The position numbers were made by a program, and so were the translations under genes. Below the pieces are notes generated by a model. It made no database searches. It worked only from the letters and a program-made list of their open reading frames with translations, and was not told where the DNA came from. 26,357 nt of DNA from a virus (taxonomy: Duplodnaviria; Heunggongvirae; Uroviricota; Caudoviricetes), in the IMG/VR virus record IMGVR_UViG_2645727948_000026, positions 1-26,357 of that record; one strand, written 5' to 3'. Position 1 is the stretch's first letter. Every line of letters starts with the position of its first letter. Shown in pieces: positions 5,657-14,767 of this stretch.

Positions 5657-6046
5657 ATGATTGACGCTCATGACTTCACAAGATGGGTGCGCACACAGGA
5701 CACCCGTCTGGCTCCCGTTCTTCAGGGATTATTTGATCTCTACATCCGTGGTCGTGACAACAGAGCACGCACCACAAAACCGGAGAATGCAGACACCCTT
5801 TATTTCACAGTAGACGACTGCTACCGCGTGGACTTCACACCACACGGGCTGGCGTTGCACTGCCTGACACCACACGGAGAATCACTGCTGGCGTATTACG
5901 ACTCCCCGACCTCCGTATTTGCGGCAATGCTGGCGCATCGCACTGCTGGCGGGTGTGCCTCGCTGAGTGAATACACCGCTGAATTTAACCGCCTTTCTGC
6001 CCTCTTCTCGCAGGAGTGGCAGCGCGTGACGGGATACCAGCCATGA
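5657..6046 (+). CDS. Early-operon hypothetical protein (129 aa)
   Basis: ORF track; its stop overlaps the likely gpA start (ATGA). Confidence 0.55.
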   Translation: MIDAHDFTRWVRTQDTRLAPVLQGLFDLYIRGRDNRARTTKPENADTLYFTVDDCYRVDFTPHGLALHCLTPHGESLLAYYDSPTSVFAAMLAHRTAGGCASLSEYTAEFNRLSALFSQEWQRVTGYQP

Positions 6047-8883
6047 ATGAGTTTGCATGGAGCTGGAATGAACCACGGCCAGCCATTGATCCGGCCAGAT
6101 TTACGGAGCACAGGCAGGAAACTGAAACCGACCTGCAACGCGCCATCCGTTACTACCTTGAGGCAGACAAAAAGGCTCTGGAAGAACAGGAAGCGAAGGA
6201 GGAAGCCTTTTTCGCACAATCCACCGTGGGTAAAAAACTCATGGCATCCCTTGAGGAAGCCGGACAGCGTGAAAAGCTGGCACAAAGCATCATCAGCAAG
6301 CGTCAGGCAACAGAACAAGACCCGGTGGCCCGTGCTTTTGCCACACTGAAGGTGCTTCCCGTTTATCTGCGTAAACCTCTGAGCCGCCACCTCTCTTTCC
6401 TGCGCAAAAAACAGGAAGCCGATCGCCAGAAAGGCAAAAAGAGCTGGCAGGCTGAACGCTACGCGCGCGGAACCCTGCGCAAAATATTCGAACGCCTGGA
6501 CCGCACCGACCACCGCTGGCTGACACCGGGTTATCGCTCCCTTGCCGGACGCGAACGCCTGGATGATTTGCTTTACCTGCCGCAGCTCAACAAGCACCAG
6601 ATACAGACGCTGGCCACCATGACGGCGGCGATGTTCAGCAGCACCTTCGAAAAACTCTGCGATGGCTTTGGCGCGACCGATGGTGAGCTGACCATGGATG
6701 TAACGCTGAAGGCGTATCAGATGCTGGCCCGCATGGCGTTACACCTGCACGCCATGCCTCCACATTATGACGCACTGACAACAGACAAAGACCGGAGGAA
6801 CGAACCGGACACGGAGCTGCTGCCGGGCGCAACCCTTCGCCTGACCTGTGCGGAATGGTGGAAACGCAAACTGTGGCTGTTACGTTGCGAGTGGCGGGAA
6901 GAACAACTCCGCGCCGCCTGTCTGGTTTCCAGAAAAACATCACCCTATCTGAGCCAGGACGCGTTAAGCGAGTTTCGCGCACAGCGCGAGAAAACACGCG
7001 ATTTCCTGAAAAGTTTCATGCTGGAAAATGAAGACGGGTTCACGATTGATCTCGAGACGGTGTATTACGCGGGAGTAAGTAACCCGGTTCACCGTAAGGC
7101 AGAAATGATGGCCACCATGAAGGGGCTGGAACTTCTGGCCGAAGCCCGTGGCGACAGAGCGGTGTTTCTGACTGTCACCTGCCCGTCAAAATACCACGCA
7201 ACAACGGAGAACGGTCATCCGAATCCCAAATGGAACGGGGCCACAATGCGCGACTCCAGCGATTACCTGGTTAACACGTTTTTTGCGGCGGTCCGCAAAA
7301 AACTGAACCGCGACGGCCTGCGCTGGTATGGCATCCGCACGGTGGAGCCTCACCATGACGGCACTGTGCACTGGCATATGATGGTCTTTGCACATCCGGA
7401 CGAGATTGAAACCATCGTGTCCCACGTCTGCGATATTGCCATTCAGGAAGACCGCCACGAGCTGGGCGATGACATAACTCCGCGTTTTAAGGCGGAGTAC
7501 GTCGACGGCTCAAAAGGCACGCCAACCAGCTACATCGCCACCTACATCGGAAAGAACCTGGACAGCCGCGCCGTGGATGGCATCGACCCGAAAACGGGCA
7601 AGCCACGCGTTGACCACGAAACAGGTAAATCAATGGCCGAGAGCGTGGAGCGCGCCATCGGCTGGGCGCGCCTTCACCGGGTCCGTCAGTTCCAGTTCTT
7701 TGGCATCCCCTCCCGTCAGGTGTGGCGTGAACTGCGCCGCCTTGCCAGCCAGATGGCACGCAATCCGGAAGGCCCGCAACGGCTGAAGGATGACGCAATG
7801 GACGCGGTACTCGCTGCCGCTGATGCCGGATGTTTTGCCACCTACATTGAGAAACAGGGTGGCGTACTTGTTCCACGCAAAGACTACCTGATTCGCACCG
7901 CCTACGACCTCGCAGATGAGCTGAACGATTACGGTGAACAGAGCGTACAGATTTACGGGATCTGGTCGCCGCTCATTGGGGAGTCTTCCCGCGTATGCAC
8001 GCATCCGGATAACTGGAAGCTGGTAAGACGCAAACCGGAAGCGGAAGACAGCGCCCGCGAAAATGGTTTTGACCTTCAGGGCGGCCCTGCCGCCCCTTGG
8101 ACTCGTGGCAATAACTGTCCCCGTGTACAGGAAACAGGCAACAACGGGACAGAACAGCCGGAAGAACGGCCAGCACCGTGGCCGCAGCTTCCTGACGGCG
8201 TTGAAGTAAATGAATGGATGCGCTCACTGAAACGGCACGAACGCCGGGCGCTGATGCGTTCGCTTCGTGACAAACAGGCAAAAAACAGCAGCGATGAAAT
8301 GCAGAACTGGACACAGAGCCGCAAACAGCAGCGGCCTTTGCCTGATAACCACGAGTTACTCGCTAAAGAATGGCGGGAGTCTGCTGAATCTCTCGGCCTG
8401 CATATCGGTGAACAACAGATGCAGCACCTGTTACGGGGCGGCAGTCTGTACGTTGACGGCAGCATCATTGCACCGCAGGGATTTGAAATTGTACGCAAAC
8501 CGGATACCCGCCCGGACAGCCGAATCACGCAGCTCTGGCAGCGTCTGAGCCGTAATCATGGCGTAAGCAGCACGGAGATCCGCCATAACCCGGTCGCCAG
8601 CTATCTGGCACAGCTGGGGGCATCAGACCCTGAAGCCGCCGCACGCCTGGCATCCACACTTCAGCAGGACCAGAACACCATGAAAACACCCGTTACCGTG
8701 CTTTCTGACATGCTGCGCGCCATCCGCGACGCAGAGCACGCACAGAGAATCAGTGAAACCACTGAACGCGCCAGCCGCAAAGCAGACCTGCTGCGGGGTG
8801 GCCTGACCAGTGGAAACAAAAAACAGACAGAAACGGGACTCACGAATCCCGTAAATGAGCAAAAAACGCGCAGCGATATATGA
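6043..8883 (+). CDS. A: Rolling-circle replication initiator endonuclease, P2 gpA-like (about 946 aa)
   Basis: ORF track 6016..8883. HUH motif (TVHWHMMVF) and paired catalytic tyrosines (SYIATYIGKN). Start at ATG 6043 preferred because it couples to the upstream stop; 6016 is also possible. C-terminus is longer than P2 gpA as I recall it (761 aa). Confidence 0.85.
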   Translation: MNEFAWSWNEPRPAIDPARFTEHRQETETDLQRAIRYYLEADKKALEEQEAKEEAFFAQSTVGKKLMASLEEAGQREKLAQSIISKRQATEQDPVARAFATLKVLPVYLRKPLSRHLSFLRKKQEADRQKGKKSWQAERYARGTLRKIFERLDRTDHRWLTPGYRSLAGRERLDDLLYLPQLNKHQIQTLATMTAAMFSSTFEKLCDGFGATDGELTMDVTLKAYQMLARMALHLHAMPPHYDALTTDKDRRNEPDTELLPGATLRLTCAEWWKRKLWLLRCEWREEQLRAACLVSRKTSPYLSQDALSEFRAQREKTRDFLKSFMLENEDGFTIDLETVYYAGVSNPVHRKAEMMATMKGLELLAEARGDRAVFLTVTCPSKYHATTENGHPNPKWNGATMRDSSDYLVNTFFAAVRKKLNRDGLRWYGIRTVEPHHDGTVHWHMMVFAHPDEIETIVSHVCDIAIQEDRHELGDDITPRFKAEYVDGSKGTPTSYIATYIGKNLDSRAVDGIDPKTGKPRVDHETGKSMAESVERAIGWARLHRVRQFQFFGIPSRQVWRELRRLASQMARNPEGPQRLKDDAMDAVLAAADAGCFATYIEKQGGVLVPRKDYLIRTAYDLADELNDYGEQSVQIYGIWSPLIGESSRVCTHPDNWKLVRRKPEAEDSARENGFDLQGGPAAPWTRGNNCPRVQETGNNGTEQPEERPAPWPQLPDGVEVNEWMRSLKRHERRALMRSLRDKQAKNSSDEMQNWTQSRKQQRPLPDNHELLAKEWRESAESLGLHIGEQQMQHLLRGGSLYVDGSIIAPQGFEIVRKPDTRPDSRITQLWQRLSRNHGVSSTEIRHNPVASYLAQLGASDPEAAARLASTLQQDQNTMKTPVTVLSDMLRAIRDAEHAQRISETTERASRKADLLRGGLTSGNKKQTETGLTNPVNEQKTRSDI

Positions 8884-8959: not shown

Positions 8960-9919
8960 ATGAAAATTTACATCGACGACGGCTCCACCAACATCAAGCT
9001 GGCATGGACTGAGAACGGCGAACGCCGCAACGCCATCAGCCCGAACAGCTTCAAGTCGGAATGGTCTGCGCCGTTCGGTGGCTCGCAGCCTGCTAACTAC
9101 ATGCTTGATGGCGTGCGCTATGGTTTTGATCCGGTCAGCGATCGCTTTGTCCAGACGACCGACACGCAATACCAGTACAGCGATGTGAATGTCATTGCCA
9201 TTCATCACGCGCTGGTCAAATCAGACATCACGCCACAGGAAGTGGATGTGGTTGTTACCCTGCCACTGAGCGAATATTTCGACACAAACGCACAGCCGGA
9301 CATGGCCAACATCAACCGCAAAAAAGCGAACGTCATGCGCCCGGTGGAGTACCAGAACGGCGAAGCATTCACTATCCGTAACGTACGGGTTATGCCTGAA
9401 TCCATTCCGGCTGGCTTTAAAGCACTGGCTGACATGAGTCCGTTTGAATCCCTGCTGATTGTGGATTTGGGCGGAACCACGCTGGATGTGGCAAAGGTTC
9501 AGGGGCAACTGGCAGGTATCAGCCAGGTGTTTTGCGATCCACACGTAGGCGTTTCTCTTATGGCCGATGCCGTACTGTCGGTGATGGCCACTAACGGTAT
9601 GCGCACCAGTCACCACATCGCCAATACCATTATCGAACATCGCCATAATGAAGCCTGGCTGCGCCAGCACATCCACAATGACGCGCATTACGCCAGCCTG
9701 ATGGCGGTTATTCGTGAAAAGGAAGAAACACTGAAACAACGCGTGATCCGCGCGCTGGCGGTTTTTTCGGGTTACGGGCGGGTGATGGTTGTCGGTGGCG
9801 GGGCGGAGATTGTGGCACCCGCTATCCGCGAAGCCTGCGGAGTTAATGCGACTTTCATCGCGGACGGGGTGCCACAGTTTGCTCTGGTTAATGGGCTGTA
9901 CGCAATGGACAAGGAGTAA
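8960..9919 (+). CDS. parM: Actin-like ATPase, ParM/StbA family
   Basis: ORF track. N-terminus MKIYIDDGSTNIKLAW and blocks VMPESIPAG, LLIVDLGGTTLDV, VMVVGGGAE match my recollection of plasmid R1 ParM and the actin-fold phosphate/adenosine motifs. Confidence 0.7.
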   Translation: MKIYIDDGSTNIKLAWTENGERRNAISPNSFKSEWSAPFGGSQPANYMLDGVRYGFDPVSDRFVQTTDTQYQYSDVNVIAIHHALVKSDITPQEVDVVVTLPLSEYFDTNAQPDMANINRKKANVMRPVEYQNGEAFTIRNVRVMPESIPAGFKALADMSPFESLLIVDLGGTTLDVAKVQGQLAGISQVFCDPHVGVSLMADAVLSVMATNGMRTSHHIANTIIEHRHNEAWLRQHIHNDAHYASLMAVIREKEETLKQRVIRALAVFSGYGRVMVVGGGAEIVAPAIREACGVNATFIADGVPQFALVNGLYAMDKE

Positions 9920-9923
9920 ACCA

Positions 9924-10235
9924 ATGACGACACCAACCAGACGGATAAGTTTCTATCTGAAGCCCGCCGCCGTCAAGAACGAAGGAGAAGCATGCGCCTG
10001 GCTGGACAGCCTTACACCAGAAGCCCGCAAAAGCGGCCAACGCGTGGCTTTTCTGGCCGGGCTGGCACTTCTGAAGACGAATCCGGCAGAGGCTTACCGA
10101 CTGGCCGCATGGGCTGATGATGAGATGTTACCTGTGACACAAATCAGCTCAAAAAAGTTTGAAGCACAGTCTGCACCAGTGGCTAAGATAACCAGCCAGA
10201 TGGCTGGGAATATCCGGGCGTTATTTCCTGAGTAA
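9924..10235 (+). CDS. parR: ParR-like small DNA-binding adaptor (103 aa)
   Basis: ORF track 9789..10235 trimmed to ATG 9924 (GGAG RBS, 4 nt after the parM stop). N-terminus RRISFYLKP...LDSL...AFLAGLAL resembles R1 ParR as recalled. Confidence 0.55.
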   Translation: MTTPTRRISFYLKPAAVKNEGEACAWLDSLTPEARKSGQRVAFLAGLALLKTNPAEAYRLAAWADDEMLPVTQISSKKFEAQSAPVAKITSQMAGNIRALFPE

Positions 10236-10363
10236 AAGCATCTGCGCGAAAAATGCTCACGTTTATAGAGACAGTATCATTCCATTTGGCACACTTACTT
10301 CAATAATCGATCTGTTAAACAAATAGATTGTCTATTATCTATCGATTAAAACGATCAATTATC

Positions 10364-10391
10364 TTGACAGTAATGTGCCTTTTTGTAAGAT
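10364..10391 (+). promoter_or_regulatory. Sigma70-type promoter (rightward)
   Basis: TTGACA (10364-10369), 16-bp spacer, TAAGAT (10386-10391); AT-rich upstream region with CGAT/TATC motifs. Confidence 0.5.
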
Positions 10392-10441
10392 CGTTCGCAT
10401 TGTGAGCGACAAGATAATTGCGCGGCATTGTCCATGCAAAA

Positions 10442-10469
10442 CGCCCCAATAGCAGCAACTATTGGGGCG
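10442..10469 (-). terminator. Hairpin acting as a leftward terminator (candidate antisense RNA 3' end)
   Basis: Perfect 11-bp stem CGCCCCAATAG / CTATTGGGGCG with a 6-nt loop; only the minus-strand reading is followed by a U-run (plus AAAA at 10438-10441). Confidence 0.45.
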
Positions 10470-10497
10470 TAAAACTCGGTCGGGCTCACTTAACCTG

Positions 10498-10582
10498 ATA
10501 TGCGTGCCTTCCGAAGTAAATCAAAATGTGCGTCGTATATTTTATTGCTTACACGCACCTCTGTAAAGGCACGCATATTTTT
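10498..10582 (+). terminator. Long hairpin plus T-run (terminator or attenuator) before the 89-aa ORF
   Basis: 13-bp arms ATATGCGTGCCTT (10498-10510) / AAGGCACGCATAT (10566-10578) followed by TTTT; an inner GTGCGT/ACGCAC stem lies in the loop. Confidence 0.4.
10539..10567 (-). promoter_or_regulatory. Sigma70-type promoter (leftward), convergent with the 10364 promoter
   Basis: On the minus strand: TTTACA (plus 10562-10567), 17-bp spacer, TAAAAT (plus 10539-10544). Predicts a transcript of about 95 nt ending at the 10442-10469 hairpin. Confidence 0.45.
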
Positions 10583-10599
10583 CCTATGAGGTAAATAAA

Positions 10600-10869
10600 G
10601 TGCGGGCTAAAACAGGTATTTGCAAGAACCCTCATCGTTATAATCCAACATTTCTGTCTCTCCCTGAATATCAAGGACAAGAAGGTCGGCACAAATGCGC
10701 TGCCTGTGCTTTTGAGCTAGGCATAAAAGATGCGCTTGAAGGACGCGCTATGGCTCAGAATGATTTAGTTTTAGCTAACATTCCGTTTAGCCAGGCTGGA
10801 ACTGTAAGGCACAGAGATGCCTATGAAGCATATGTTCGTGGTTGGCGATTAATAAACAGCAACAATTGA
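10600..10869 (+). CDS. Small Cys-containing protein (89 aa), function unknown
   Basis: ORF track; GTG start with GAGGT RBS. CAACAF motif with a single CxxC. Followed by a clean intrinsic terminator. Confidence 0.4.
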   Translation: MRAKTGICKNPHRYNPTFLSLPEYQGQEGRHKCAACAFELGIKDALEGRAMAQNDLVLANIPFSQAGTVRHRDAYEAYVRGWRLINSNN

Positions 10870-10877
10870 TACTTTTG

Positions 10878-10903
10878 AAGCGCCGATAAGGCGCTTTTTT
10901 TGT
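10878..10903 (+). terminator. Rho-independent terminator
   Basis: AAGCGCC-GATAA-GGCGCTT stem-loop followed by a T8 run. Confidence 0.7.
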
Positions 10904-10904
10904 T

Positions 10905-11046
10905 TGCACGATAGTGCACAAGTTTGCACAATTTTTTTGAACGACTTTTTGTACTTCCGGCCCGCGTGGTGGCTGGATCCGTCAAGGATCCGTACGTGCA
11001 CAAAAAAACGCGTTTTTTCTGCGCGCAGGTGACGGGGGAACAGCCC
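10905..11046. other. Probable cos / packaging region with phased repeats
   Basis: TGCAC at 10905, 10915, 10925 (10-bp phasing) and 10997; two CGGATCCG palindromes (10975-10992); A6-CGCG-T6 palindrome (11003-11018); G-rich 19-mer GGTGACGGGGGAACAGCCC (11028-11046) resembling the P2/186 cohesive end as I recall it. Placement next to Q fits P2. Confidence 0.3.
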
Positions 11047-11302
11047 GCGTTTCAGGGGGTAAATAGCATTCCCTGAACGATGTCGCAGAGACACAACAGA
11101 ATGGCCATATTTCTCACGCTGAGCATGAAAAAGGCGTGAGGGCTTTTGATTTGATGGGGTGAAAGGTAAGGCCGTCAAAATCGCACTGAGGCAGCGAGAA
11201 CATACAGTCAACGCGGTGGAATTGCGTAAGAGTCTGACCGTCGATGGTGGCGATAAACTGGAAGGCGTCGTGAAATTATCTGATTGATACAGGAGCTGGA
11301 GA

Positions 11303-11331
11303 GCCGGGGCATAAATTTTTTATGCCCCGGC
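11303..11331. repeat. 29-bp perfect palindrome
   Basis: GCCGGGGCATAAA-TTT-TTTATGCCCCGGC, in the non-coding stretch upstream of the 174-aa ORF. Confidence 0.6.
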
Positions 11332-11430
11332 GAAGCAGCAGACAAGCGAAGCGCGTCAGCGATACGGCACCTTGCCGACCATACTTCATAAGTGCAAAAT
11401 ACGAGCAAAGAAATCAATGGAGGCTGTCTT

Positions 11431-11955
11431 ATGGTCATTAATTACAAGCAGTTAAGAGAAAAACGGGAGCAGGTAAAGGAGAGCTTTCGCCGCAATGAAG
11501 ATCTGACCCCGCTTGTACGCCTTGCCCAGGGCATTGTTGATGCTTATGAAATCTCGCTGGAGCTGCCATCACAGACCTGGACAGATAGCGACGGTAATCG
11601 CCAGCATTACGTTTCATGCGGACTGGAAGCAGCCGAAGGATTTCGCAGAATGCCTTTATCCCAGATCCCTGCCGCTACCCCCAAAGCACGGGGCAGCAAT
11701 GATGAGCGAAAACTGACTTTTAGTATTGAAACGGTGGTTGACGACACACCTGGCGAAGTCGCGTTCGTGCACACGCCTGTTTCGATCGCAATGTATAACG
11801 ATGAAATACAGGTTCGCGTTAATAATAATATCGTGCCACTTAAAGAAGGTAATTCACCCTACACCACCGTTTGTGAAGCCATTCAATATTACGTTCTCTC
11901 TGAAATTGATAATCTCAAGCCTGACGGCACCCAGAAAATGGTTCAACTCTGGTAA
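11431..11955 (+). CDS. Hypothetical protein (174 aa) convergent with the portal gene
   Basis: ORF track 11392..11955 trimmed to ATG 11431 (GGAGG 7 nt upstream). No recognisable motif. Confidence 0.55.
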   Translation: MVINYKQLREKREQVKESFRRNEDLTPLVRLAQGIVDAYEISLELPSQTWTDSDGNRQHYVSCGLEAAEGFRRMPLSQIPAATPKARGSNDERKLTFSIETVVDDTPGEVAFVHTPVSIAMYNDEIQVRVNNNIVPLKEGNSPYTTVCEAIQYYVLSEIDNLKPDGTQKMVQLW

Positions 11956-11960
11956 AAAGG

Positions 11961-11986
11961 ACAGCCCCATCACGGGGCTGTTTTTT
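11961..11986. terminator. Bidirectional terminator shared by the 174-aa ORF and Q
   Basis: CAGCCCC-ATCAC-GGGGCTG hairpin with T6 downstream on plus and a T-run on minus (plus AAAAA at 11953-11957). Confidence 0.6.
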
Positions 11987-13016
11987 CATCAAGAAGAGCA
12001 TAAGAGTTAAAACGGATCACCTCTTCGCCAAGCCAGTCATTGATGTGCTTCATAGCCTCCATGACGGGCATCAGCTCGTTAATTGCGTAAACCCGCGCTG
12101 CCTTCTCCACATCGCCAAACGCACTTTTTTCGCCCGGCATCGCCCCCATCAGTTGCGGCGGAACGCGGTGCGCAGCCAGCACATCATCACGGGATGCCGC
12201 CTTAACATTCATGAATTCATCTTTTGCGGTGATCTGCTGGAACGGCAAAATTTGCACCCCCTCTTTGCCCCCGTTGGGCGCATGAATGAGCACGTTTTTA
12301 AACGCACCACCACCACGTGCCCCCTGTAGCGTTTCTTTCAGGGAGTCCATGCTTTCGCGGTTTACCTGCGCTGCACCGATGTAGATGATGCACCCGGCGT
12401 GGGATCCGTTGTCGTAGTACAGTTTTCTGAACATGTCCGCCGAATGAGAAAGGCTGGCCGAGAGTAATGCGCCAAGATATTCCGGCATGCCGTAGATTTC
12501 CTGGTTAATATCCGGATTCATCAGGTGGCACACTTTGCCAGGACGAAACTGAAACGCGTCCTTGCCATCCTGCACATACCACCATGATTCAAGATCGCTT
12601 CCGCGTCGCATGTATTTCGCCAGGGCGTGCCGTAATTTAAGCGGTTCGCCGAGCATATTGCTTCGAAGCTCAAGGAATGCGTTACCGAACACAAACCAGT
12701 CCAGCGCCAGCGCCGAGAAATCCTGCCGGGAAAGCAGCGGGTGCGGGATGTAGCAACCGAGTAATACATTGCGCTTAAAGTAAAGCGCAGACTGATGCCA
12801 GGACGTTTGCCGGGCTGCTCTTGCCAGACCGTACCAGTCCACCGGGGTTTCATACCACCGCCCGTTATCAGCACAGTACATATTGTCCAGCAGGTCATGC
12901 CCGGTCAGGCGATAAGGACCATCAAATGTGAATGCACTGAGCGATGATTCTTTCCTGAGCGCATCAGCGAGATCAATGCGTGAACTCATGCGCACTTTTT
13001 TATTTTTTCTGCTCAT
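11970..13016 (-). CDS. Q: Portal protein, P2 gpQ-like
   Basis: ORF track (348 aa); size and position match P2 Q; start overlaps the P stop. Confidence 0.85.
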   Translation of the reverse strand: MSRKNKKVRMSSRIDLADALRKESSLSAFTFDGPYRLTGHDLLDNMYCADNGRWYETPVDWYGLARAARQTSWHQSALYFKRNVLLGCYIPHPLLSRQDFSALALDWFVFGNAFLELRSNMLGEPLKLRHALAKYMRRGSDLESWWYVQDGKDAFQFRPGKVCHLMNPDINQEIYGMPEYLGALLSASLSHSADMFRKLYYDNGSHAGCIIYIGAAQVNRESMDSLKETLQGARGGGAFKNVLIHAPNGGKEGVQILPFQQITAKDEFMNVKAASRDDVLAAHRVPPQLMGAMPGEKSAFGDVEKAARVYAINELMPVMEAMKHINDWLGEEVIRFNSYALLDEKTAP

Positions 13017-14767
13017 CAGAACTCCATAACCGTGAAACGCTCGTTTTCTCCTTCGCCGCCAATTGGTTCGTTAATGACAGCAAGCATGGTTGCCCACGCA
13101 AGGTCGCCGTGGCTGATCCCCCTCGCGCGGTCCGTTTCGTAAGTGATAAAGCCGCCCGGTGTTTTCACCTTACGCACGGCGTTAAAGGCTGCGACCAGCT
13201 CGCGTTCGGCGCGATCGTATTCCCACCGCCCGGCACGCATTATTTGCAGCATTTTCAGTACCAGCGACCGTTTTGATGACAGCGTGAAGGTGTACGGAAT
13301 AGCAGCAGGGAAAAACCGTTTCACTATCTGATAAACAGCCTCCCCGTTCCCGCCTGTCACATCAATGCCGATGTGTTCCACGTTGTAGCGACACGTGAAC
13401 TCTTCAATGACTCTGGCCTGTTCTTCAAACTCCAGCCCCTGAACGCGTCGCGTCTCCACCGTTCGAAAACGGCCGCCAGGAACAGCCGGAGGAACCACCA
13501 CGGACACAGCGCCGCTGTCGCCGTTTCCACTGCTGCCGTTTGCGTCATACCCAATCCATACCGGACGATTCCCCATCGGGCGGGGAGCAAAAGGTTTCCA
13601 GTCTTTCCAGTCGTCGTATCCGTCAACACCACAGCCAATCAGGATATTCAGGTTAAATGCCGATTCCCCTTCGCGGACAAACTCACACATATAGAGATTG
13701 AGGAACTCGTCTTCGGTGTTTTCATCACGAATTTCATCAATATCGGTGTGTTTCCAGCCGTGATTAACCACATCTTCCAGCGTGACAATTTGCCGCCACG
13801 TCCGGTCAGGGCAGATAAGCCCGTTATGCAGCGTTTTCCAGTCCACAGAAAAACGCTGGCGTTTATGCGAGGCCTTTTTCTCGTTCCAGCGGTCGCCGTT
13901 CCAGTAGGCGTATGCCTCGTGCGTTTCGGTGGATGGCGTGGAGAAGTAGGTGCGCCGCAGTCCGCTGAGGGTTGCCATAGCGCCAGCCACCTTGCGCAGT
14001 TCAGCAAAGCGACTGACCCAGAAAAATTCATCAAAATAAAAATTGCCCGTGTAGGACTGTGCCGTCGCAGCAGAAGTACCAAGAAAATGCAGCTCTGCGC
14101 CGTTGGAGAGGATGATTTTATCGCCCCCTTTCAGCTCCACATCAACTTCAGATGCAGCCTCCTGAATAATGCTTTTAAACTGGAACGCCTGACGACGCGA
14201 CGCAGACAAAAAAATCTGGTTACGCTGGTAAGGTTGCGCCACATCGTCACGCAGCGCCATCAGCAGTGCTTCCTGAGCAAAATACCAGGTCGCCCCAATC
14301 TGTCGGGATTTCAGGACCATCCTGTTACGTATCCCGGCTTCCCTGCAAAGGGTCAGGGAGTCAAACCAGCCCCGCTGATGCCACTCCAGCCTGCTGATGA
14401 TTTTTTCCCGCAGTGCGGCAATCTGTTCCGGCGTGAAATGATTTTTGAGTTTTTTCGCCCGGCCTTTCTTTCCTGCGGCCATCACATCCGGCTGGCCATC
14501 ATGCAGCTTTTTAAGCTGCCGGGTCAGCAGGTCTATTTCCTTGAAGTCACCACCTGTTTTATTCTGTTTTTCAGTAAGCTGGATGAGGCGCGCATCGATG
14601 GACTGCGTGACACGCTGCACGGGTGGCGTTTCATCCCACTGGTCGCGTTTTTTCCACGCATAAATCGTGTTCGGGTTTATTCCCATCAGACGTGATATTT
14701 CTGCGGGCGGATAACCCTGCCAGTAAAGTTGCCGCGCACGCTGGCGCACAAAAGCGTCCTGAATCAT
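13016..14767 (-). CDS. P: Terminase large (ATPase) subunit, P2 gpP-like
   Basis: ORF track (583 aa); N-terminal ARQLYWQGY...IYAWKKRDQWD matches recalled gpP. Confidence 0.9.
   Translation of the reverse strand: MIQDAFVRQRARQLYWQGYPPAEISRLMGINPNTIYAWKKRDQWDETPPVQRVTQSIDARLIQLTEKQNKTGGDFKEIDLLTRQLKKLHDGQPDVMAAGKKGRAKKLKNHFTPEQIAALREKIISRLEWHQRGWFDSLTLCREAGIRNRMVLKSRQIGATWYFAQEALLMALRDDVAQPYQRNQIFLSASRRQAFQFKSIIQEAASEVDVELKGGDKIILSNGAELHFLGTSAATAQSYTGNFYFDEFFWVSRFAELRKVAGAMATLSGLRRTYFSTPSTETHEAYAYWNGDRWNEKKASHKRQRFSVDWKTLHNGLICPDRTWRQIVTLEDVVNHGWKHTDIDEIRDENTEDEFLNLYMCEFVREGESAFNLNILIGCGVDGYDDWKDWKPFAPRPMGNRPVWIGYDANGSSGNGDSGAVSVVVPPAVPGGRFRTVETRRVQGLEFEEQARVIEEFTCRYNVEHIGIDVTGGNGEAVYQIVKRFFPAAIPYTFTLSSKRSLVLKMLQIMRAGRWEYDRAERELVAAFNAVRKVKTPGGFITYETDRARGISHGDLAWATMLAVINEPIGGEGENERFTVMEF

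Follow-up and report, generated by a model that had tools for sequence, protein, structure and literature searches.

The window analysed here, positions 1 to 26,357 of the IMG/VR virus record IMGVR_UViG_2645727948_000026, is a P88-like Escherichia coli prophage (Xuanwuvirus, Peduoviridae, P2-like), and the element in question is a gene for a 174-residue protein that is placed between the replication gene A and the portal gene Q, i.e. in the gpA-gpQ interval of P2-like prophages. The gene is part of a unit with the classic layout of a moron, comprising a predicted promoter, a Shine-Dalgarno sequence, an open reading frame (ORF) and a terminator of its own. The features of this unit and of its immediate flanks are as follows.

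11303-11331: perfect 29-bp palindrome (13 + 3 + 13), GCCGGGGCATAAA-TTT-TTTATGCCCCGGC, arms 100% complementary
11360-11987 (~628 bp), + strand: moron cassette, an indel relative to phages P88 and 520873
11372-11377 and 11395-11400, + strand: predicted sigma-70 promoter, -35 TTGCCG and -10 CAAAAT with a 17-nt spacer
11419-11423, + strand: Shine-Dalgarno sequence GGAGG, 7 nt before the ATG
11431 (ATG)-11955 (TAA), + strand: coding sequence of 174 residues, WP_000236495, PHROG 5091
11961-11981, both strands: two-way intrinsic terminator hairpin, flanked by an A-run (11955-11959) and a T-run (11982-11986)
11970-13016, - strand: portal gene Q (Phage_portal match), its last five codons supplied by the cassette

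An earlier note on this DNA had described a 174-residue ORF with a strong GGAGG ribosome-binding site, convergent with Q and sharing a bidirectional terminator with it, and each of these features was found. The mechanical ORF call begins at a GTG at 11392, but the protein of every relative begins MVINY, and the start was therefore assigned to the ATG at 11431. The terminator hairpin carries T-runs for both strands; the Q stop codon (11970-11972) lies within its loop, and its right arm together with the T-run encodes the last residues of Q (EKTAP). Terminator-like hairpins were also observed after the homologues in loci L009, L012 and L071. L009 and L055, two loci of the Salmonella type with proteins only ~60% identical, retain CTTGnC and GCAAAAT at the same spacing around a diverged spacer, and this conservation of hexamers and spacing is a phylogenetic footprint of a promoter, which we infer to be active. 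The GC content of the cassette and its ORF is ~47.3-47.6%, compared with 53.0% for Q and 53.8% for the terminase gene P.

The boundaries of the cassette were defined by alignment with P88 and 520873, in which Q is 99% and P 98-99% identical, yet 11360-11987 is missing. Homology runs unbroken from the left, through the palindrome, to 11359, where these two phages have the Q stop codon (TCA within ...GCGCGTCAG); in place of 11360-11987 they hold only ~14 nt, encoding TQPTS and the stop, and homology returns inside Q at ~11988. Accordingly, the C-terminus of Q reads EKTAP with the cassette and TQPTS without it. The Q codons beside the cassette (YALLD; RFNS vs RFNP) show extra, mostly synonymous differences, which suggests that the cassette came by recombination with a diverged Q 3′-end.

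Next, presence and absence were surveyed in 5426 complete E. coli genomes using 11290-12020 as the query, and a genome matching at least 80% of the query was counted as a carrier. The gene was carried by 397 genomes, whereas ~740 further genomes matched only the first 74 nt of the query (the palindrome and its flank), under an annotated portal gene; the flank was present in 1140 genomes in all. Among phage records, 4 had the gene and 12 lacked it. These results demonstrated that the gene is variable among close relatives with exact indel boundaries, and they bear out the view of the earlier note that it is inserted cargo. The note's statement that P2 has no gene in the corresponding gap between cos and Q was likewise correct, as only the tQ terminator lies between cosL and Q in P2. 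Across ~40 IMG/VR loci and one Salmonella genome with the E. coli-type cassette, the Q-adjacent order is fixed, with Q always next, and the cargo on the A side varies, ParM being present or absent and distances differing.

The gene itself is real and under purifying selection: the ratio of nonsynonymous to synonymous substitution rates (dN/dS) was 0.06-0.12 in comparisons with three alleles of the E. coli type and 0.20 for a pair of alleles of the Salmonella type. It had been called an orphan, which did not hold. The protein matched the PHROG 5091 hidden Markov model (HMM) over its full length (E 1.4e-67, residues 1-168 vs profile positions 1-164 of 164), a family annotated as of unknown function and the sole PHROG matched by all 50 aligned members. 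A word-indexed search returned relatives in E. coli, Salmonella and Trabulsiella, and an exhaustive profile search returned 89 clusters at 50% identity, mostly full-length proteins of 155-185 residues, with named family members in Providencia, Morganella and Xenorhabdus. An identical protein has 167 entries as 'hypothetical' under WP_000236495 in Table S5 (gpA-gpQ arrangements) of Rousset et al. (2022, PMC9122126); literature searches for this accession, the UniProt identifier and the PHROG number gave no match. Separately, the copy at L054 6001-6521 is 1 nt short (a 521-nt tblastn span in which 148 of 174 residues align), implying a frameshift, and several database proteins (among P0011-P0017) are truncated to ~96-124 residues, so the gene decays in some lysogens.

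The family was found as cargo well beyond this prophage. In Salmonella and Morganella P2-like prophages, a homologue occupies the same Q-adjacent site, convergent with the portal gene, and the Trabulsiella homologue comes immediately after gpA, with HicB and Phd-Fic modules behind it. In E217-like myophages (Providencia, Xenorhabdus and metagenomes), the homologue is in the tail module and, where the stretch could be resolved, between the tail chaperone and the tape-measure gene (L004, L011-13, L061 and L068). Comparison of seven viral contigs with a chaperone 91-100% identical showed the gene in one of them, and a gap of 25 nt between the chaperone ORF and the tape-measure gene in the other six. 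The filled sites of the E217 type read TTGAGC-17-TAATAT, gene, terminator. This unit interrupts the T-run of a hairpin that was already there and brings a second hairpin, leaving GGCCTTTTT on both sides; the observation concerns L012 5950-6600, L061 5590-6260 and L059 5590-5670. Phage CharmingMan, which is of lambdoid type, carries a member that scores 98 bits against the family HMM; it is located between the genes for the Q antiterminator and for lysis, with a terminator after it. One metagenomic homologue adjoins an EcoRII-type restriction-modification pair. Collectively, these arrangements demonstrated that the PHROG 5091 family moves between accessory slots of unrelated temperate phages.

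Two further observations concern the E217-like phages. Their annotated starts (MYIPN...) are probably 12 codons too long, as most family members start M-[ST]-I-T-Y. More variable cargo lies downstream of the tape-measure gene (L004 8990-10222, L011 9083-10549), including DUF4431, a DUF4431-tRNA_anti-like fusion and an Mrr-type restriction endonuclease, with BstA and YafO elsewhere in one locus; these phages thus have accessory slots inside the tail module.

The earlier note had also pointed to the perfect 29-bp palindrome upstream of the gene, which is present as described, and had proposed that it is an operator or a recombination scar. As RNA, the palindrome forms a stable GC-rich hairpin of -31.6 kcal/mol (+ strand) or -29.3 kcal/mol (- strand; z ~ -7 vs shuffles), and by our own arithmetic a perfect pair of 13-nt arms is expected by chance ~4e-4 times per 26 kb. 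In the ~40 IMG/VR loci and the Salmonella genome with the E. coli-type cassette, it always starts 128 nt before the ATG. A role as operator of the 174-residue gene would suit a perfect dyad located 41 nt before the predicted -35 hexamer, with a half-site length appropriate to a dimeric DNA-binding protein. Against both an operator and a scar, the indel junction lies 28 nt to the right of the palindrome, and P88 and 520873 retain the palindrome together with those 28 nt in the absence of the gene, there ~30 nt beyond the Q stop, as do the ~740 E. coli genomes with the flank alone. Reciprocally, no such palindrome precedes the gene in Salmonella-type, Morganella or Trabulsiella prophages, and no second copy of the palindrome or of its half-site was found in the window beyond chance. 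Moreover, natural variation takes two forms, GTC... (19 loci) and ...GGT (2 loci); both are transitions at the two basal stem pairs and keep G-U pairing in the + strand RNA only, although two variants are too little to settle the strand. The palindrome, retained by gene-less relatives, missing beside other copies of the gene and unique in its half-site, thus belongs to the P88-type backbone, apart from the cassette, and its being an operator or an insertion scar is very improbable. It is the only strong hairpin beyond Q in P88-type phages that lack cargo, and most plausibly represents the ancestral 3′-end hairpin of the late P-Q transcript, displaced upstream of the cassette by the insertion.

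The properties of the protein were then considered. Consistent with the earlier statement that no motifs are recognisable, sequence searches of Pfam, NCBIfam, PADLOC and the PDB with the 174-residue protein gave no real matches. With phmmer, residues 125-168 matched designed helical-repeat proteins (E down to 2.7e-7); these matches were dismissed as compositional, because the structural model has strands and one helix in this region. The protein is soluble, acidic (isoelectric point 5.0) and hydrophilic, and no signal peptide, membrane segment, enzyme signature or toxin signature was found in it. The model predicts an alpha+beta fold consisting of a helical hairpin at the N-terminus, an antiparallel sheet and a helix at the C-terminus, and this confidently predicted fold matches nothing solved. 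Conserved positions include Y39, S42, L43, L45, W50, Y60, V61, F97 and T101, which make up no recognisable catalytic motif. Given the lack of a catalytic signature, this small acidic cytoplasmic protein most likely acts by binding another protein.

We propose that the cassette was inserted at the very 3′-end of Q of a P88-like prophage, within the gpA-gpQ cargo hotspot, and that a weak predicted sigma-70 promoter and a strong ribosome-binding site would drive the 174-residue ORF in the lysogen. The cassette terminator would now also end the late P-Q transcript while encoding the last five residues of Q. The acidic alpha+beta product would bind another protein and thereby exclude or abort competing phages, i.e. 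act in phage-phage or phage-host conflict. Because the family is cargo of unrelated temperate phages and lies beside toxin-antitoxin and restriction-modification genes, a lysogen-expressed role in conflict is the most likely one. Taken as a whole, the reading of a self-contained moron at the Q 3′-end in the gpA-gpQ hotspot, probably specifying a conflict factor, is held tentatively, at just under an even chance, and a role specifically in defence or exclusion is put somewhat lower again. A broader proposal, that PHROG 5091 is a new single-protein anti-phage or anti-defence system which binds a phage or host protein and has spread as a cassette across P2-like, E217-like and lambdoid phages of Enterobacterales, is unlikely, if far from negligible.

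Several observations weigh against the main proposal, that of a moron specifying a conflict factor. The promoter pair agrees with the consensus at 8 of 12 positions, which is under the threshold of the consensus scan, and the scan did not report it. PADLOC-DB v2 returned 0 families for the 174-residue protein, and over 50 relatives PADLOC gave only two marginal single-member matches (E ~0.005-0.009). WP_000236495 is not in Table S2 (tested systems) of PMC9122126, the location in a hotspot is guilt by association, and P2 hotspots also hold non-defence cargo, namely partition systems and toxins. As for the palindrome, it is without a U-tract, the sequence 3′ of the hairpin being GAAGCAGC (+ strand) or TCTCCAGC (- strand), and the terminator scan was silent there; a terminator role is uncertain for this reason, and the palindrome may be a 3′-end stabiliser or barrier instead of a canonical terminator.

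Two other functions of the gene have to be set against a role in defence or exclusion. The product could serve counter-defence or host take-over, as a small acidic binder that neutralises an immune or housekeeping protein of the host or of a rival element at entry or induction. This is doubtful, since a promoter-gene-terminator unit convergent with the late genes typifies morons expressed in the lysogen, all structural scores were under any confident threshold, and few P2-like phages carry an anti-defence gene that can be recognised as such (28 of 1511 elements; PMC13586616). Similarly doubtful is that the gene is lysogenic-conversion cargo unrelated to phage conflict, acting on the physiology, stress tolerance or colonising ability of the host, or that it hitch-hikes, nearly neutral and kept by linkage. 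Conversion would agree with the frequency of the gene in human extraintestinal pathogenic E. coli lineages such as O25b:H4, with the partition systems and toxins held by P2 hotspots, and with the CharmingMan copy, which lies beside genes annotated as tellurite resistance and TciB-like; dN/dS of 0.06-0.2 and conservation from E. coli to Morganella and Providencia speak against neutrality, and the protein has no signal peptide, membrane segment, enzyme signature or toxin signature. That the gene encodes an accessory morphogenesis or packaging protein of the phage itself, for which its position next to structural genes in two phage lineages could be quoted (portal and cos region in P2-like, tape-measure in E217-like), is extremely unlikely, as the gene is absent from about two thirds of the P88-type prophages with Q and P 98-100% identical, from six of seven near-identical E217-like contigs and from functional isolated phages such as P88, its orientation and insertion site vary by lineage, and frameshifted (L054) or truncated copies exist.

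As to the genomic setting, the region is 100% identical in E. coli M1/5 and 99.9% identical in O25b:H4 chromosomes. Escherichia phages PhiR44_2, vB_EcoM-569R5 and vB_EcoM-705R2, as well as a P88-type prophage of an O25b:H4-ST131 strain, match it at 98-99% identity, and P88, 520873, 500465-2, 503458 and other Xuanwuvirus genomes at 92-96% identity in two pieces. The other genes referred to are as follows.

6016-8883: replication gene A (Phage_GPA match), upstream of the cassette
11159-11287, + strand: 42-codon ORF, 'hypothetical protein' in P88, PhiR44_2 and P88_4B11
13016-14767: P2-type large terminase gene P, after Q

The 42-codon ORF is open in all relatives, and four comparisons gave dN/dS of 1.0-2.8. 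Such ratios indicate that it is probably non-coding, and the idea that it is a gene terminated by the palindrome was rejected on the same ground. The 174-residue gene had been placed between a probable cos and the portal gene; the portal side stands on the Phage_portal match, and the cos side stands by synteny only. By analogy with P2, cos should lie within the conserved non-coding stretch 10900-11300. A match to the P2 cos 19-mer, at 11028-11046, agrees at 13 of 19 positions, which is chance level for the window, and this stretch has an indel in the relative P88_4B11, so it was rejected as cos; the P88_4B11 record is linearised at the equivalent of 10948/10949. An Rfam scan of 10800-12100 gave no match.

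On the A side, a partition pair of ParM (StbA_N and ParM C-terminal domain) and a ParR-like protein (Plasmid_stab_B) lies directly after gene A at 8960-10235; Rousset et al. (2022, PMC9122126) noted modules of this kind in roughly 1 in 4 P2-like phages. The palindrome/cassette query had 1284 matches in E. coli, one of them on a plasmid. An AT-rich stretch of ~365 bp follows parR at 10236-10600, with no + strand ORF of at least 40 codons, dyads at 10303-10362, 10441-10470 (perfect, 12+6+12) and 10498-10578, and a near-consensus promoter spotted by eye (TTGACA at 10365-10370, 16 nt, TAAGAT); this stretch might act as a centromere-like or regulatory element or encode a small RNA. Beyond it, 10600-10869 holds an 89-codon ORF with a GTG start, a CAAC motif and no Pfam match, followed by a strong intrinsic terminator at 10877-10897. 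This ORF is shared with phage 520873 (gp17) and is replaced by other genes in P88, PhiR44_2 and O25b:H4, so the A-side cargo is variable.

The gpA-gpQ interval has repeatedly given new anti-phage systems, and the cassette is one of its common occupants, carried by ~7% of complete E. coli genomes (397 of 5426), O25b:H4 clinical strains included. It is a well-defined and cheap candidate for defence or counter-defence screens. Two annotations can also be corrected, in that the palindrome is to be assigned to the backbone and not to the gene, and the 42-codon 'hypothetical protein' is probably no gene. The kind of element is already known, as moron cargo of the P2 gpA-gpQ hotspot, and will not surprise a specialist, while this member is uncharacterised.

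Morons are promoter-gene-terminator units found between genes that are adjacent in relatives, as described in the HK97 and lambda literature. The cassette resembles them in its exact insertion boundaries, its own terminator, its conserved promoter-like pair, its GC content below that of the flanks and the recurrence of the same logic in a second lineage; it differs in that its promoter is only predicted and that its terminator is common to, and partly encodes, the essential gene Q. The nearest counterpart of the palindrome is P2 tQ, which NC_001895 annotates as the putative rho-independent terminator of the P operon. The palindrome of cargo-less P88-type phages is likewise a strong hairpin just beyond Q, but tQ, a GC hairpin with a T-run after it, begins 5 nt away from the Q stop, whereas the palindrome lies ~30 nt away without a U-tract, and the two show no sequence similarity.

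As to location, the gpA-gpQ interval is a documented defence hotspot (PMC9122126; PMC13586616). Like the cargo of this old/tin hotspot, the cassette occupies the A-to-Q interval, is variable among close relatives and is represented by WP_000236495 in Table S5 of PMC9122126. Unlike that cargo, it stands hard against Q, with the conserved non-coding region separating it from the genes on the A side; the two sets of cargo vary independently, and the protein of the cassette is unlike old, tin or any PADLOC model. With regard to fold, small alpha+beta protein-binding modules such as the FP domain of PI31/Fbxo7, actin capping protein and the Med17 C-terminal domain are among the closest known systems. 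With regard to function, a comparison by hhalign of the family profile with phi80 orf63 (TaiEcA) gave a probability of 0.14% over 7 aligned columns, and homology to the Tai proteins was rejected. Temperate phages and satellites encode Tai proteins in their moron slots, cos-proximal hotspots among them; each is a single small protein that acts by attaching to a structural protein of a phage (PMC11364771), and by analogy they are a plausible functional model for the 174-residue protein.
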